A DNA stretch of 64,000 bases from Omnitrophica bacterium GWA2_41_15 (GCA_919901915.1 CAKKQB010000013.1:64192-128191), one strand, 5' to 3'. Shown: positions 1 to 9,980, counted from the stretch's first letter. Notes: generated by a model not told the origin, from the sequence alone. Program-made: numbers and translations.

Positions 1-1933
1 CTTTCGCTTTTTCTCTTATCTGCTTGTTCCAGAAAAATCTTTTTTTGCTTAAAAGAGTTAGGTAAGGAGAGGCCTCTTTGAAACAAACTTCTTCTATAAG
101 AGACATGTTCTCTAAAAGCGCGTTATTTTCCTTAACAGAAAAAAGCAATTCAACCGCCTCTTTTCTTGCCCCCTCACTTTTAGACAAAGCTTCTAACGCC
201 TGCCTCTTCAACAAAGGTGTACCTTTCTCTAAGGAAAGAATCGTAAATTTTTCATCAATCGCGCTTAATTTCTGCATCGCCTTCAATACTTCTATCTTTA
301 TAAACTCATTAGAAAACGAAAAAATATTCTTAAGCGCTTCTATGGCCAAGGCCAAATCAACTGTTTTCAAGCCATCTATAATCCCTAGCATAAATCCTAC
401 ATCAGTATTCTTTTTCTCTAAATTCCCATAAAAAATGTCCTTATGCCCGGGAAAAAACTTAAAAAATAATTTCAAGGCATAAGCGCTAACCTTACCTTCA
501 TTAAATATTTTATCCAGATAAAATTCAACCCCCATAGAGGATTTTTCCAGGGTATCCGCGAAATACTCCAAGTCAGAAGACAGTGGTTCGGCCTCCCCTT
601 GCCGAAGCCGCAAGTCAGAGGACAGTGGTTCGGCCGGCTCCCAAAACAGATTTTCTATTATTTTTGTAACGCGCGTATCCAAGACATCAAGAAAACGGCT
701 TAAATACGGTTTTTGTTTTCTTCCGTCTTTCAAAGCGCCACACAGATATTTAAGATATTGATAATCCTTTACCTTAACTATCTCGGGGAGCTCTTGAGAA
801 ATTTTTTCTATAATCTGCTCGGCCTTTTCAGAGTTTTCCTCTTGCGCGAACATACTCAACAAAATCAAACGGTAATTTTTTTGCAAAATTCCACGGTCAA
901 AAGAAAAAGCTCCCCCGGAAGAAATATCATTAAGCATAGCGCTAATCCTGCCGCGATAAACCTCTGAATCAAGAGAGGCATTGGGTTGGGCCAATAATTC
1001 CTGTATCTTTTTTATTGCTTTAGGATTCTGTTTTAAAGAATCTTTATTGAATGAATCTGTTAAAAAAAGTGAAGCGATGCCCTCCTGCATTTTTTCATCC
1101 GTGAAACGGGAAAATAACTCCAAACTTAAATTATCAAAATTTTCATCTTTTAATATTCCGCTCCAAAGCGCTCCCGCGAAGTCCTCTTCGCTCAAATGTC
1201 TAAAGAATACCTTAATTTTATCTATATTTTCTCCCCCTAAAACATCTTTATGCCTTAAAACTGACCTGAACATCGCGCTAATACAGGTTCTAAATCTTTC
1301 CTGATCATGTTTTTTAAGATAATCTAAAAAGGCCGTCACGCTCTGCCTTAGCTCTTCGTCATTAAGTAAATCATCCGCCTTAAACCTTAGAGCTATCTTT
1401 TCAAAATTATCCGCGAACACGCTTACCTTCTCTGAATCGCCCGAGCCTATTGCCTGAGCGACTAAATATTCCCATACATCCCTAATTTCTTCTCCCTCAT
1501 CTTTTAAAAATTGCGAATAATCCAACTCTTCAATAGATACATGCGCGATATTCTCCTTTTTTAGAATGCCCCCAAGGCCGCCTTGTTTAAAAACTTCTCG
1601 AACAGGTAAAGCTAAGCCGGCAAGAAAATATCTCAATTCCTCAACCGTAGCGCCTTGTTCTATCTGAATACTTCTCAATTTACGACGGTGAAAAATCATG
1701 GCTAATTCAACGCAAAACCCCATTTTCTGCCAATACCTTGAGTCCAAAAACAAAGAATTGGGAGTAACGCCTATTTTTATCGGGTTTAAAAAACCAAACA
1801 CCAAATCAGCGTTTTTTTTAAATTTTTCCACGGAATCTATAAAATAGGGGTGTGTTCCAGAATAAGAGGAGGCATTGTTTATAGCTATACGCAGGCTTTT
1901 AAGAAAATCATTTAAGACTTCTTCTTTATTCAT
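1..1933 (-). CDS. hypothetical protein, 3'-partial (>=644 aa, continues past left window edge)
   Basis: Read by hand on minus strand: ATG at 1931-1933 (MNKEEVLNDFLKSLRIAINNASSYSGTHPYF...) stays open to position 1; missing from ORF track only because no in-window stop; no domain recognised; carries an in-frame 42-bp tandem duplication (AEPLSSDLRLRQGE/AEPLSSDL). Confidence 0.6.
   Translation of the reverse strand, partial: MNKEEVLNDFLKSLRIAINNASSYSGTHPYFIDSVEKFKKNADLVFGFLNPIKIGVTPNSLFLDSRYWQKMGFCVELAMIFHRRKLRSIQIEQGATVEELRYFLAGLALPVREVFKQGGLGGILKKENIAHVSIEELDYSQFLKDEGEEIRDVWEYLVAQAIGSGDSEKVSVFADNFEKIALRFKADDLLNDEELRQSVTAFLDYLKKHDQERFRTCISAMFRSVLRHKDVLGGENIDKIKVFFRHLSEEDFAGALWSGILKDENFDNLSLELFSRFTDEKMQEGIASLFLTDSFNKDSLKQNPKAIKKIQELLAQPNASLDSEVYRGRISAMLNDISSGGAFSFDRGILQKNYRLILLSMFAQEENSEKAEQIIEKISQELPEIVKVKDYQYLKYLCGALKDGRKQKPYLSRFLDVLDTRVTKIIENLFWEPAEPLSSDLRLRQGEAEPLSSDLEYFADTLEKSSMGVEFYLDKIFNEGKVSAYALKLFFKFFPGHKDIFYGNLEKKNTDVGFMLGIIDGLKTVDLALAIEALKNIFSFSNEFIKIEVLKAMQKLSAIDEKFTILSLEKGTPLLKRQALEALSKSEGARKEAVELLFSVKENNALLENMSLIEEVCFKEASPYLTLLSKKRFFWNKQIREKAK
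571..646. repeat. in-frame 42-bp tandem duplication inside gene A derived from a ~45-bp mini palindromic element
   Basis: caagtcagaRgacagtggttcggcc x2; homologous to 9768-9813 in opposite orientation. Confidence 0.7.
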
Positions 1934-2070
1934 CGTACATTAGCAACTTGAACCCGGATTTTGCAATAGAAACGACATTCGCCGGCAAATCGGTTTCGGC
2001 TATAGGAAGCCGAACCATAGCCTTGTGGCTAAAAGAGCGCATCTTCATCATTTTAACAGGAACCGGAATA

Positions 2071-2106
2071 AGTGTAGAAACGAGGCACTGCCTCGTCTCT
2101 ACACTT
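2071..2106. repeat. family D hairpin (GTAGAGACGC stem, variable loop)
   Basis: agtgtagaaacgaggcactgcctcgtctctacact. Confidence 0.6.
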
Positions 2107-2145
2107 ATTTCTGGCGCACCCTTCACATTATTTACAAAAGAACCA

Positions 2146-7991: not shown

Positions 7992-8012
7992 AGCAATATT
8001 AATTTAACACGA

Positions 8013-8218
8013 ATTCTCATGGGGCTGTTGCGAAATGCCATTTTTCGTCATTCCGGCGAAAACCGGAATCCAGAACTCTTTGATTTTAATAGACTTATGG
8101 ATACCGGCGACCGAGGGCGAAATGACCGAGGAAGTGTCGGAGCCTAACTGGGCTCGACCTTTCGCCAATATGACGATTTTAATGTATTTTGCAACAGCCC
8201 CCTCATGGATTTATCCGT
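8013..8218. mobile_element. MITE family A (~200 bp) with ~20-bp TIRs CATGGGGCTGTTGCGAAAT and internal hairpin GTCATTCCGGCGAAARCCGGAATCCAG
   Basis: near-identical copy at 51988-52171; TIRs read directly; spurious ORF 8035-8259. Confidence 0.8.
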
Positions 8219-8255
8219 GTTTATCCGTGTTCTTTTATCCGTGTCAATCCGTGTT
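8207..8255 (-). promoter_or_regulatory. cluster of 4 direct TTATCCGTGT (minus: ACACGGATAA) motifs with 10-14-bp phasing, just after pilMN stop / upstream of pilO
   Basis: ttatccgtgtttatccgtgttcttttatccgtgtcaatccgtgtt. Confidence 0.6.
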
Positions 8256-9980
8256 TTAAGGTAGTTGGAAGCTAATCTTAAAATTATCAACTTTTAAGCC
8301 ATCACCGCTGCCTTTATCAACAGAATCAATCTTAGCGCCCACAACTAACCTTGAATTATTCATTTTACCTACAAACTCGGCCAATATAACATTAGGAGAC
8401 GCATCGCCATTCTTAACAAAACCGATAATTGTCCCTGTCTTGGATTGGCAATTTAACAAAAGCCCCTTTAAGAAAATATCTTGAGAGGCAGCCTTACTAA
8501 ATTCCTTTAACAGGGAACCAACAGGAAAATCTGAATCCCTGACTTTTTCCGCGAAATTGCTTAAAGCATCCGTATTTTGCTTTATTTTTTTAACTTCGGA
8601 TAGAACATTTTGATACGCCAGAGTATTATCTAAACGCTTCTGTTGCGTATCAAGGCCTGCTTTCGCGAAAATATAAGGCAAAAGCATTAATAAAAAAACC
8701 AGAAATGCCGCCCAACGTAAAGAAATCTTCTGCAACTTCTCTATTTTTCCCGTACAAAATTCTTGCGGCAGGAGATTAATCTCTCTGTCTAAACCTACAC
8801 CTAAACCAAAAGCAGCATAACTACGCGATAAAAAATCAGAATTGACAGAGGGTAAAGATTCTATTTCCTCCTTCAAAAAAATCACAGAAACAGGTAAAGA
8901 CAATTCAACGCTTAGAATTTTATCTAAATCAAAAATCCTTCCTGCCTCACCAGCAATCAAAATATTCTTTAGCGCGCCTTCCTTAGGCCCTTTAAACTGC
9001 GCGTCATAATAAGCAAGCGAACGCTTTATCTCCTGCGCCAATCTTTCCAAACCCGGCCTAAGCATTGCCAAAATCTGGCTAACCGCTATCTTATTATTAT
9101 AAATCGAACTATTGGCAAATTTAGAAGTTTTGAACAAAAATTTATCTATCTCATCAGGAGTTAATTGCTCTTTTCCCTTAACGCTGATTAATACCTGCGT
9201 TAACGACTCTCTTAATTTAGCGATTGACACGGGAAGCTGACGATAAAAATTAAGCTTATTCTCATGAAGAATAGCAAAATAACCGCTATCTTCCGTCATA
9301 TGTAAAATGCCTACAGCCTCATCGCGCGCCTCTTTAGCATATTCCTCTATAAGTTTCGCGTAACCAAAAATAGAAACTCCCACCCCTGAACATCTAAGCC
9401 CTATTTGCGTCAATAGGACAACCTGCTTTTTAATCTCGTCTTCTTTTGCCGCTACGCAGATGATATCAAATGTTTTCGCGCCATCTTCTTTAGTTTCCTT
9501 CTTGATGAGGTGATACTTAATTATCGCCTCGGATAAATCAAAAGGCACATCGTCCTTAATCTGCCACTTAATTGCTTCTAACAACTCTTTATCCGGAACA
9601 GCCGGCAATTGAAGGCGCTTAATAATTAAAAAACTTAAGGATGGACTCAAAACACAATTTTGGTGCTGGATACCATTTTCTTTAATAAAACTACGTATGG
9701 AATCTTTAATCTTCTCTTCTCTCTTATCCCCCGAGAGCTCAAATATATTCAAAGCAGTAATTTTTGCCTTGCGGCTTCGGCCAGAAGAGGCCGAACCACT
9801 GCCTTCTGGCTGGTCTTTTCCCGTAGCAATGGGATCCCGCCTCCCGATACAAGAAATACAGGATCCCGACAAAGTCGGGAAAAGACGGGGAAGTTGAATA
9901 TTAATCAGCTTTAAATTTGAGCTGATATCAACGACAAGGACTTCATCCGCATTTTTAACAAATAGATTAGATATGTTCAT
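8256..9980 (-). CDS. PilM-PilN fusion protein (actin-like ATPase-fold PilM fused to TM/coiled-coil PilN)
   Basis: 574 aa; N-terminal VLVVDISSNLKLINI and FDIICVAAKEDEI actin-like PilM motifs; C-terminal EINLLPQEF + TM + coiled coil typical of PilN; N-terminal region carries an in-frame palindromic insertion (9760-9900). Confidence 0.8.
   Translation of the reverse strand: MNISNLFVKNADEVLVVDISSNLKLINIQLPRLFPTLSGSCISCIGRRDPIATGKDQPEGSGSASSGRSRKAKITALNIFELSGDKREEKIKDSIRSFIKENGIQHQNCVLSPSLSFLIIKRLQLPAVPDKELLEAIKWQIKDDVPFDLSEAIIKYHLIKKETKEDGAKTFDIICVAAKEDEIKKQVVLLTQIGLRCSGVGVSIFGYAKLIEEYAKEARDEAVGILHMTEDSGYFAILHENKLNFYRQLPVSIAKLRESLTQVLISVKGKEQLTPDEIDKFLFKTSKFANSSIYNNKIAVSQILAMLRPGLERLAQEIKRSLAYYDAQFKGPKEGALKNILIAGEAGRIFDLDKILSVELSLPVSVIFLKEEIESLPSVNSDFLSRSYAAFGLGVGLDREINLLPQEFCTGKIEKLQKISLRWAAFLVFLLMLLPYIFAKAGLDTQQKRLDNTLAYQNVLSEVKKIKQNTDALSNFAEKVRDSDFPVGSLLKEFSKAASQDIFLKGLLLNCQSKTGTIIGFVKNGDASPNVILAEFVGKMNNSRLVVGAKIDSVDKGSGDGLKVDNFKISFQLP
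9768..9813. repeat. ~45-bp mini palindromic element (TTGCGGCTTCGGC..AGGCCGAACCACTG..CTTCTGG) inserted in frame in pilMN
   Basis: near-identical to gene A element; followed by second hairpin tcccgacaaagtcggga (9872-9888). Confidence 0.7.

Follow-up and report, generated by a model that had tools for sequence, protein, structure and literature searches.

A 42-nucleotide (nt) DNA unit that can fold into a hairpin is dispersed in the genome of Omnitrophica bacterium GWA2_41_15, where it lies between genes and, in frame, inside genes for unrelated proteins. The unit was studied in a 64,000-nt stretch of this genome (GCA_919901915.1 CAKKQB010000013.1:64192-128191), referred to here as the window, and in DNA from genome and metagenome collections. 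It is highly probable that the unit represents a dispersed repeat family tolerated in reading frames. The best reading of these repeats is that they are selfish DNA, non-coding in origin and specific to Candidatus Omnitrophota, and they appear to serve no function for the host. A mechanism of spreading guided by microhomology is plausible, if a little short of probable, and the overall account, repeat family and mechanism taken jointly, is on balance probably right.

The two sites that first drew attention lie in gene A, which encodes a conserved Omnitrophota protein, and in pilMN, which encodes a PilM-PilN fusion. A sequence-only reading of the window had described a 45-bp palindrome common to both genes, in frame in each and in opposite orientations, and had taken it for a small repeat family tolerated inside reading frames rather than a segmental duplication. 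The degenerate 40-mer given there has exact matches at 574-613 (minus strand) and 9769-9808 (plus strand), where none were expected from 100 dinucleotide-preserving shuffles. Both matches are in frame and, because both genes are on the minus strand, the element is oppositely oriented relative to its two hosts. The translations given for the two sites, ...WEPAEPLSSDLRLRQGEAEPLSSDLEYF in gene A and ...GKDQPEGSGSASSGRSRKAK in pilMN, were confirmed. A repeat finder aligned the sites over 47 nt with 87% identity, and since the similarity ends there, the flanks are without homology.

The structure of the two insertions differs in several respects from that first description. The unit is 42 nt long and not a 45-bp palindrome; it contains an internal bulged hairpin of 7 + 2 bp and a second hairpin of 4 bp. 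The 42-nt period of two tandem occurrences in gene A is correct, but the second unit is only about 0.6 of a full one, so that gene A carries 1.6 units in total. The pilMN insertion is real, but instead of 140 bp it measures approximately 123 nt, or 41 codons (9768-9890), and is made up of one unit and an adjoining 74-nt piece. The second pilMN hairpin is this separate piece. The piece matches only itself, in inverted orientation, and is not of the 42-nt family; no second copy of it was found in the window, in the 52 loci described below, or over a 22-kb part of this contig, 10 kb of which lie beyond the window.

The family as such was upheld. A wider search placed it at dozens of unrelated sites in Omnitrophota assemblies, not at the gene A and pilMN sites alone. 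One 45-mer in two genes could at first be taken for a segmental duplication, for gene conversion between gene A and pilMN, for an artefact of assembly or for convergence on a low-complexity linker peptide, but nothing beyond that first impression speaks for any of these. Against them stand the end of the similarity at 47 nt, the presence of the family in dozens of independent assemblies and samples, and the wholly different peptides produced in different frames. These explanations are hardly credible, and a conserved peptide was rejected as well.

Searches of the window with relaxed criteria, with an nhmmer profile and with R1, a covariance model, brought the copies there to four full 42-nt units and one hairpin-only relic (Table 1). 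The sequence-only reading had located the gene A and pilMN sites correctly and had overlooked three others, in gltB (the gene for the large subunit of glutamate synthase), in the intergenic region at 1990-2031, and at the relic (31156-31176), whose membership of the family is uncertain. The gltB unit has the stem variant TCGGGCT/AGCCCGA, and its orientation and frame are those of the pilMN unit. Across the inserts, the genes read ...FWEPAEPLSSDLRLRQGEAEPLSSDLEYF... (gene A) and ...GKDQPEGSGSASSGRSRKAKITALN... (pilMN), and the peptides that the inserts would give are predicted to be KPEGSGLAPYK in GltB and DQPEGSGSASSGR in PilMN. A fifth, partly deleted copy lies between genes on the same contig, 6 kb past the window start (L059:17677-17722). 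R1 also had weaker matches in the window, at 63729-63766 and others with E>0.1, which did not convince on inspection or were dropped. The units are GC-rich: window copies have 46-65% GC against a window average of about 40%, and for the family as a whole the figure is 60-73% GC in genomes of about 40% GC.

The family consensus is GCGGCTT(S)GGCy-ATnGGA-rGCC(S)AACCAC-GGCC-TTCT-GGCC-A (42 nt). Folded as a single strand, the unit forms two stems. The first has 9 bp, a single bulged base and the 6-nt loop ATnGGA; the second, GGCC/GGCC, has 4 bp and comes after it. Pairing was counted for this one named structure on 28 copies. Over both helices 95% of cells were paired, compared with 17-51% when the partner columns were slid, and helix 1 was 97% paired. 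The observed pairing or covariation was reached in 0 of 500 shuffles. At the best pair, 11-26, there were 18 GC, 8 CG and 2 UA combinations and none unpaired, and RNAalifold found identical helices. In a model-aligned set of 40 distinct rows, double (compensatory) changes were seen at six of the nine helix-1 pairs, and over the two sets the number is four to six. An alignment built by the model favours the structure, however, copies that are related do not count as independent, and three helix-1 pairs were free to vary, yet partly constrained by the search pattern.

The stem variants observed were TTCGGCy/rGCCGAA, TTGGGCy/rGCCCAA, TCGGGCT/AGCCCGA, TTTGGCT/AGCCAAA, TGCGGCT/AGCCGCA, TTTGCCT/AGGCAAA, TTTAGCT/AGCTAAA and TCTGGC/GCCAGA. 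Several of these coexist within one genome. It is therefore the ability to fold that is kept and not the sequence of the duplex. The loop ATnGGA and the linker ACCAC are conserved. An integron attC or dif-like recombinase site was considered and set aside; the coexistence of stem sequences in one genome favours a folded strand over a sequence-specific duplex site. When the window was searched against Rfam 15 at the gathering threshold, the single match was a tRNA at 6695-6768, and the units matched no family.

The inserts are absent from most or all of the orthologous proteins compared. None of 67 PilMN orthologs has the insert, with at most 3 residues at a position where the window protein has 41. 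In gene A, which has approximately 100 homologs, mostly from Omnitrophota, and whose protein has no Pfam domain in a Pfam scan, all 95 orthologs lack residues at the 16 columns of the insert, and the partial unit overlies a native E-E-P-x-x-D/G motif of the orthologs. GltB of the window has 23 residues between ILYKP and QDHG, where orthologs have a 13-residue loop (for example EVPKSVGTHCTIK); native residues have therefore been replaced. This position is a loop between the flavin mononucleotide (FMN) and GXGXG domains. In an alignment of 120 Omnitrophota GltB proteins most are without an insert of the family.

The PilMN insert had been assigned to the segment of PilM that binds PilN. An AlphaFold model of PilMN (49 sequences, mean predicted local distance difference test score, pLDDT, 85) places it instead in the PilM N-terminal subdomain, where residues 36-67 form the one low-confidence internal segment (pLDDT <50), flanked by confident strands 23-29 and 73-80. 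Because this only low-confidence internal segment lies between two confident strands, the insert is modelled as a protruding loop. A search of solved-structure sequences with PilM aligned only downstream of the insert, and the loop assignment thus rests on the AlphaFold model. The closest PilMN ortholog, P0002 (58% identity), carries a different insert of 32 residues, DTSAAFSVGVEQSPEFTEGQSSELTEGRSRSI, elsewhere in the same N-terminal subdomain.

In the GltB alignment, more than 20 sites have inserts that are specific to a lineage; several are of the 42-nt family and others are of different peptide types. Peptides recurring outside the family in GltB P0075-P0194 are SAEGGSASGG, SLPAGRQD, ..ERSRS and PVPRIKRYDGIPPQTGIVEWRD. 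In P0126 one insert is apparently nested within another, EGH-ACLPARQ-GLASNGQSHKS. The number of insert positions, the unrelated peptide types and the nested case suggest, from the sequences, that several small element families may colonise coding regions in Omnitrophota.

Genome and metagenome collections were scanned once each with the pattern CGGYTYSGGCNNNNNNARGCCSRACCAYNG, and 52 loci were returned. In the low-GC loci (38-50% GC), L009 excepted, all matches continue into the unit's 3′ portion, ..GGCCyTCTGGCCAG.., although the pattern did not ask for it. Loci of more than 55% GC, and L009 (a Spirochaetia metagenome-assembled genome, 51% GC), are without this downstream consensus and were set aside as chance matches (L001, L006, L009, L012-L015, L019, L021-L023, L029, L036, L037 and L052). 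Model R1 produced 63 matches in the low-GC loci, among them about 13 distinct copies that had not been selected by the pattern. Together, the collection scans and the covariance model gave about 45 further distinct copies outside the window, all in low-GC loci. The named metagenome-assembled genomes among the low-GC loci with the family are all Omnitrophota, L005 being labelled only 'uncultured bacterium', and named homologs of the three window host proteins are nearly all from Candidatus Omnitrophota; identical copies of the three proteins are encoded on one contig of 133.6 kb. Units occur singly, as 1.2-1.6 units, or in head-to-tail arrays, between genes and mostly inside them. No description of such palindromic or hairpin repeats in Omnitrophota was found in the literature.

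Of 48 distinct sequence contexts, 40 lie inside open reading frames (ORFs) of at least 120 codons. Among these 40 the unit is on the same strand as the host gene in 22 and on the opposite strand in 18, giving no orientation bias. The three frames are used 11, 7 and 4 times on the same strand and 15, 0 and 3 times on the opposite strand. The unit corresponds to 14 codons and is stop-free in five of its six frames; the sole unused frame is the one with a TAG from the loop. All intragenic copies leave the host frame open, and inside genes the added length is 42 nt or divisible by 3. The peptides encoded in different frames, AAWAIGSPTTAFWP, SGLGYGKPNHGPLA, LRLRQGEAEPLSSD and KPEGNGLASHSQSH, are unrelated. 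As five frames are read, it is the DNA hairpin, and not any peptide, that is propagated.

The hosts are ordinary, unrelated, mostly housekeeping and often essential proteins: GltB, PilMN, EPSP synthase, Lnt, a family-4 glycosyltransferase, a class I tRNA synthetase, topoisomerase I (TopA), GvpL/F, volactin, and aspartokinase, with units between the ACT domains and at the C-terminus. Arrays are found in shikimate kinase (at the N-terminus) and in a histidine kinase. Units landing in surface loops or linkers would be translated as extra low-complexity peptide and tolerated, while selection would purge the rest; intragenic survival is attributed to the stop-free reading of the 14-codon unit in five of six frames.

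Inserts of this kind might instead remain untranslated and be bypassed by ribosomes, as in phage T4 gene 60 and Magnusiomyces mitochondria. As GC-rich hairpins placed within genes of a genome rich in AT, the units bear a superficial resemblance to the 81 mitochondrial inserts, which break the frame and are skipped by the ribosome (PMC5009743). Bypassed inserts would escape constraints on length and frame, whereas the 42-nt units always keep the frame of the host open, in multiples of 3 and with the stop-containing frame unused. Bypassing is therefore very improbable.

Four comparisons of filled and empty sites show how copies are gained. GltB P0134 has 42 nt more than P0157, to which it is 91% identical, with ATAG on both sides of the added sequence; P0134 GltB also has two tandem reverse units at another site. 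GltB P0112 has 42 nt more than P0086 at ILYRP/E, where the native site, on the element strand, is AACCTCTGGCCTAT and already holds the 3′ end of the unit, CTCTGGCC. At the C-terminus of aspartokinase, L008 and L025 have 42 nt more than L003 and L002, and the native sequence ..TTCGGCTTGGAT.. already holds the 5′ arm of the unit, CGGCTTGG. In an intergenic region of the near-identical strains L039 and L035, the former has 43 nt more, an extra unit with a different stem located directly 5′ of an existing unit, with the junction TTGTGGCTTT. One period (42-43 nt) was thus gained in all four pairs. The junction repeats are 4, 5-6, 8 and 10 nt long, and their phase relative to the unit differs. Three of the four pairs have as their repeat an element-like sequence that was already there in the empty site. 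In one metagenome contig, L027:6325-6552, a 180-nt duplication of the 3′ end of the aspartokinase gene lies between two element copies, in comparison with L008, L025 and L043; this could be the result of element-mediated recombination or of misassembly.

The GltB ILY(K/R)P/E site is occupied by family inserts in at least three separate lineages, represented by the window genome, by P0080 and by the clade of P0112, P0126 and P0133. A neighbour-joining tree keeps these lineages apart, and the site has no insert in P0086 and P0146, their nearest relatives. The inserts share one orientation and frame and differ in their stem variants. From its sequence, the site looks like a hotspot made by native codons that mimic the end of the element.

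These observations are consistent with a copy-and-paste step that would add exactly one period where a site already has 4-10 nt in common with some part of the unit. Replication could switch template into a tandem donor and back, or a unit-length circle could recombine with the site, and only hairpin-forming units would propagate. A cut-and-paste element, with its fixed ends and a target duplication of fixed length, is hard to reconcile with the variable phase, the variable junction length and the gain of whole unit lengths, or with insertion beside non-identical units and the replacement of residues in GltB. We suggest, tentatively, that a dedicated transposase may be dispensable altogether, the few bases common to site and unit priming the copying of one 42-nt period from a tandem donor or circle.

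Alternatively, the units could be non-autonomous and moved in trans by an enzyme that reads the folded single-stranded hairpin, such as a Y1 transposase of the type found in REP-associated tyrosine transposases (RAYTs) and IS200-IS605, or a structure-specific recombinase. The junction repeats would then represent target recognition by base pairing. The preservation of the stem in structure and not in sequence, the fixed bulge and the conserved loop are the pattern shown by sites that IS200/IS605-like transposases read as folded DNA, and both this pattern and the appearance of new units beside existing ones have parallels in REPINs, doublets of repetitive extragenic palindromic (REP) sequences, and their clusters (PMC3116915). 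However, junctions of varying phase and length imply that there are no constant element ends, the copies are singlets or direct arrays and not inverted doublets, and neither orientation is preferred relative to host genes. No transposase turned up in a Pfam scan of 23 of the approximately 58 window ORFs, and the collection scans used a DNA pattern only. Movement by such an enzyme is less likely, but it is a serious rival to the microhomology reading.

A further possibility is that the hairpin is a DNA or RNA signal with a function in the host, for example a site for a nucleoid, replication or RNA-processing factor, kept by selection and present in genes as a side effect. Compensatory changes in the stem and the conserved loop and ACCAC linker are compatible with this, as is the conservation of orthologous copies at three sites, in which 6 differences were found over the 48-nt element compared with about 15.7 expected from the divergence of the flanking coding DNA (Poisson estimate about 0.005 for three independent pairs). 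This slower evolution could reflect either constraint on the hairpin in place or gene conversion homogenising the copies, and the latter explains the conservation equally well. A host signal would not be expected in both orientations at arbitrary positions in unrelated genes, to be missing from most orthologs, or to differ in copy number between near-identical strains, and the window units matched nothing in Rfam at the gathering threshold. There is only a slight chance that the hairpin is such a signal.

Several points also weigh against a selfish repeat family spreading by microhomology. The lower divergence of orthologous copies just described is one. The number of filled/empty pairs is only four, and in one of them, P0134/P0157, the ATAG junction fits the element consensus poorly and could be a short target duplication. 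The gltB and gene A insertions consist of 1.6 units and replace native residues, and the pilMN insertion includes the unrelated 74-nt piece; the events in the window were therefore more complex than the clean gain of a unit. The DNA covered was the window and loci of up to 22 kb, less than 1 Mb in all. Translation of the inserts as extra peptide is likewise suggested by the conservation of frame only.

The 42-nt unit works like a Rickettsia palindromic element (RPE) and is not a member of that group; it is set apart from RPE-1 to RPE-10 by their descriptions and not by sequence comparison, and no kinship in sequence would be expected. As a summary of Ogata et al. (2000, 2002) presents them, RPEs are dispersed palindromic repeats of about 100-150 bp, found in frame in many unrelated, often essential Rickettsia genes and absent from the orthologs; each family has a conserved peptide in one frame, and about half of the copies are intragenic (PMC10969869). 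The two systems have in common a bacterial host lineage with small genomes, insertion in frame into unrelated genes, absence from orthologs, compatibility with the protein fold through placement in loops, and the lack of a known transposase. In contrast to RPEs, the Omnitrophota unit is smaller by a factor of three and belongs to another phylum; it has no conserved peptide and can be read in either orientation, with five frames in use. It also forms head-to-tail arrays, is intragenic in about 80% of the sampled contexts, and is gained in unit lengths at microhomology.

REPs are extragenic by definition, usually occur as inverted doublets, and flank a RAYT gene (PMC3116915). Like REPs and REPINs, the units are very short hairpin repeats in many copies, conserved in structure over sequence, with new copies in or beside old ones and tandem forms. 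They differ in being mostly intragenic and in occurring as singlets, as 1.2-1.6 units or as direct arrays in place of inverted doublets. Miniature inverted-repeat transposable elements differ from the unit in that its inverted repeat is internal, its boundaries vary in phase with no terminal inverted repeats at constant ends, and, in the four filled/empty pairs, no arbitrary target is duplicated over a fixed length.

The small dispersed repeats (SDRs) of cyanobacteria, attributed to Elhai et al. in 2008, are reportedly palindromic mobile repeats of about 21-27 nt that are found inside other repeats and occasionally in genes. SDRs are not known to have a recognisable transposition machinery, to colonise housekeeping proteins in frame throughout a phylum, or to form periodic arrays of 14 codons. 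They resemble the unit in being very small and palindromic, and differ from it in size, sequence and phylum. Palindromic amphipathic repeat coding elements (PARCELs) are outlined by their describers as tandem intragenic repeats with dyad symmetry in the DNA, apparently shuffled within and between genomes, that encode a conserved amphipathic motif of 25 residues in ORFs of unknown function. The unit differs from PARCELs in its 14-codon period, in having no conserved peptide, and in its hosts, which are ordinary enzymes. The GC clusters of yeast mitochondria are mobile. Like the unit, they are short, rich in GC and able to form hairpins, and they enter genomes rich in AT, coding regions among them.

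Other repeats were seen in the window. Intergenic arrays of 7-nt units (AGCGTAG/AGCGTAT/AGCGGAT) face each other in inverted orientation to form long imperfect palindromes, and a similar array (GAACAGA) lies in frame inside the Omnitrophota GltB P0157. A second hairpin repeat family, TCGTCATTCCGGCGAAAGCCGGAATCCAG, and its relative CTGGACCCCGGCTTCCGCCGGGGTGAC occur in both orientations, apparently between genes, and one GTCATTCCGG hairpin is contained in a dispersed 182-nt repeat of 93% identity (8020-8201 and 51987-52168). An exact direct duplication of 300 nt (14714-15013 and 15178-15477, 464 nt apart) extends over two adjacent small ORFs and is either a recent tandem gene duplication or the product of assembly collapse or expansion; short repeats of the TTATCCGTG type are found near it (8207-8254, 13984-14031 and 14687-14758). 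Related hairpins just downstream of genes at 2076-2105 and 10021-10050, GTAGAAACGAGGCACTGCCTCGTCTCTAC and GTAGAGACGCAAAATTTTGCGTCTCTAC, have stem ends in common and different interiors, and may be terminator-like or another repeat family. A further GC-rich hairpin, CGCGTAGGGG(y)GGGCTTGCCC(r)CCC, is present more than once between genes of this contig (31390-31470; L059:17625-17650).

The long ORFs of the window all lie on the minus strand, and over the whole of 1-64000 the GC skew stays below zero, which places the window within a single replichore with co-oriented genes. The genes at 2402-12367 resemble a type IV pilus cluster and include those for a PilB-like ATPase, PilMN, a response regulator and a PAS histidine kinase that has a PilZ domain.

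Table 1. Host genes, copies of the 42-nt unit and other repeats in the window
Feature	Position	Strand	Details
Gene A	1..1933	-	Conserved Omnitrophota protein, 651 amino acids; first 644 codons in window, gene runs off window start; P0195 is an exact match over the full length
Full unit in gene A	572..613	- (gene's own strand)	Read as LRLRQGEAEPLSSD; R1 match 567-614, 59 bits
Partial second unit in gene A	614..640	-	About 0.6 unit, 3′ part of unit; (P)AEPLSSD; nhmmer 614-635; lag-42 self-match
Intergenic copy	1990..2031	+	Between NIL-domain gene and gene A start, upstream of gene A; stem TTCGGCT/AGCCGAA; nhmmer E=2e-7; R1 match 1987-2034, 59.4 bits
pilMN	8256..9980	-	PilM-PilN fusion, 574 amino acids; PF11104, homologs, AlphaFold model
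Full unit in pilMN	9769..9810	+ (against gene strand)	Read as QPEGSGSASSGRSRK; R1 match 9768-9815, 60.8 bits
74-nt piece adjoining pilMN unit	9813..9886		11-nt terminal inverted repeats 9813-9823 / 9876-9886, GTCTTTTCCCG/CGGGAAAAGAC
Possible hairpin-only relic, intergenic	31152..31180	+	TAGCTTTGGCT ATCGA AGCCAAAGCTA; R1 partial match 31156-31176, 18 bits, E=0.003
gltB	34743..39386	-	Glutamate synthase large subunit, 1547 amino acids; Pfam GATase_2, Glu_syn_central, Glu_synthase, GXGXG
1.6 units in gltB	35589..35660	+ (against gene strand)	Partial 35589-35616, full 35617-35658; read as QPKGNGRASHSPSRKPEGSGLAP; full unit R1 match 35616-35663, 61.6 bits
Heptamer arrays	18913-19049, 37903-38027, 39382-39560, 44645-44742, 47639-47732, 53634-53709		Repeat finder
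TCGTCATTCCGGCGAAAGCCGGAATCCAG/CTGGACCCCGGCTTCCGCCGGGGTGAC hairpins	6189-6219, 8045-8075, 29285-29365, 52012-52042, 56159-56218, 6120-6146		Repeat finder

For 25 years Rickettsia has been the main known source of selfish DNA inserted in frame into genes, and to our knowledge the mechanism of its insertion has never been established. The Omnitrophota repeat is an independent case of selfish DNA in genes, on the scale of a whole phylum of ultra-small, largely uncultured bacteria and with a unit of only 14 codons. Its clean filled/empty pairs and the recurrent GltB hotspot make the mechanism directly testable with existing metagenomes. The inserts inflate and diversify proteins such as GltB, TopA, tRNA synthetases and PilM, and will disturb alignments, phylogenies and domain annotation; at the same time they amount to a natural catalogue of places in loops where 14-28 additional residues are tolerated. 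If copying is indeed primed by microhomology, conserved codons that mimic the element, such as KPE in GltB and FGL in aspartokinase, would become recurrent hotspots of insertion, and the repeat would act as a phylum-wide generator of loop insertions in essential proteins. How RPEs and other protein-coding palindromic repeats spread is unexplained, and priming of this kind would give them, too, a mechanism that can be tested.

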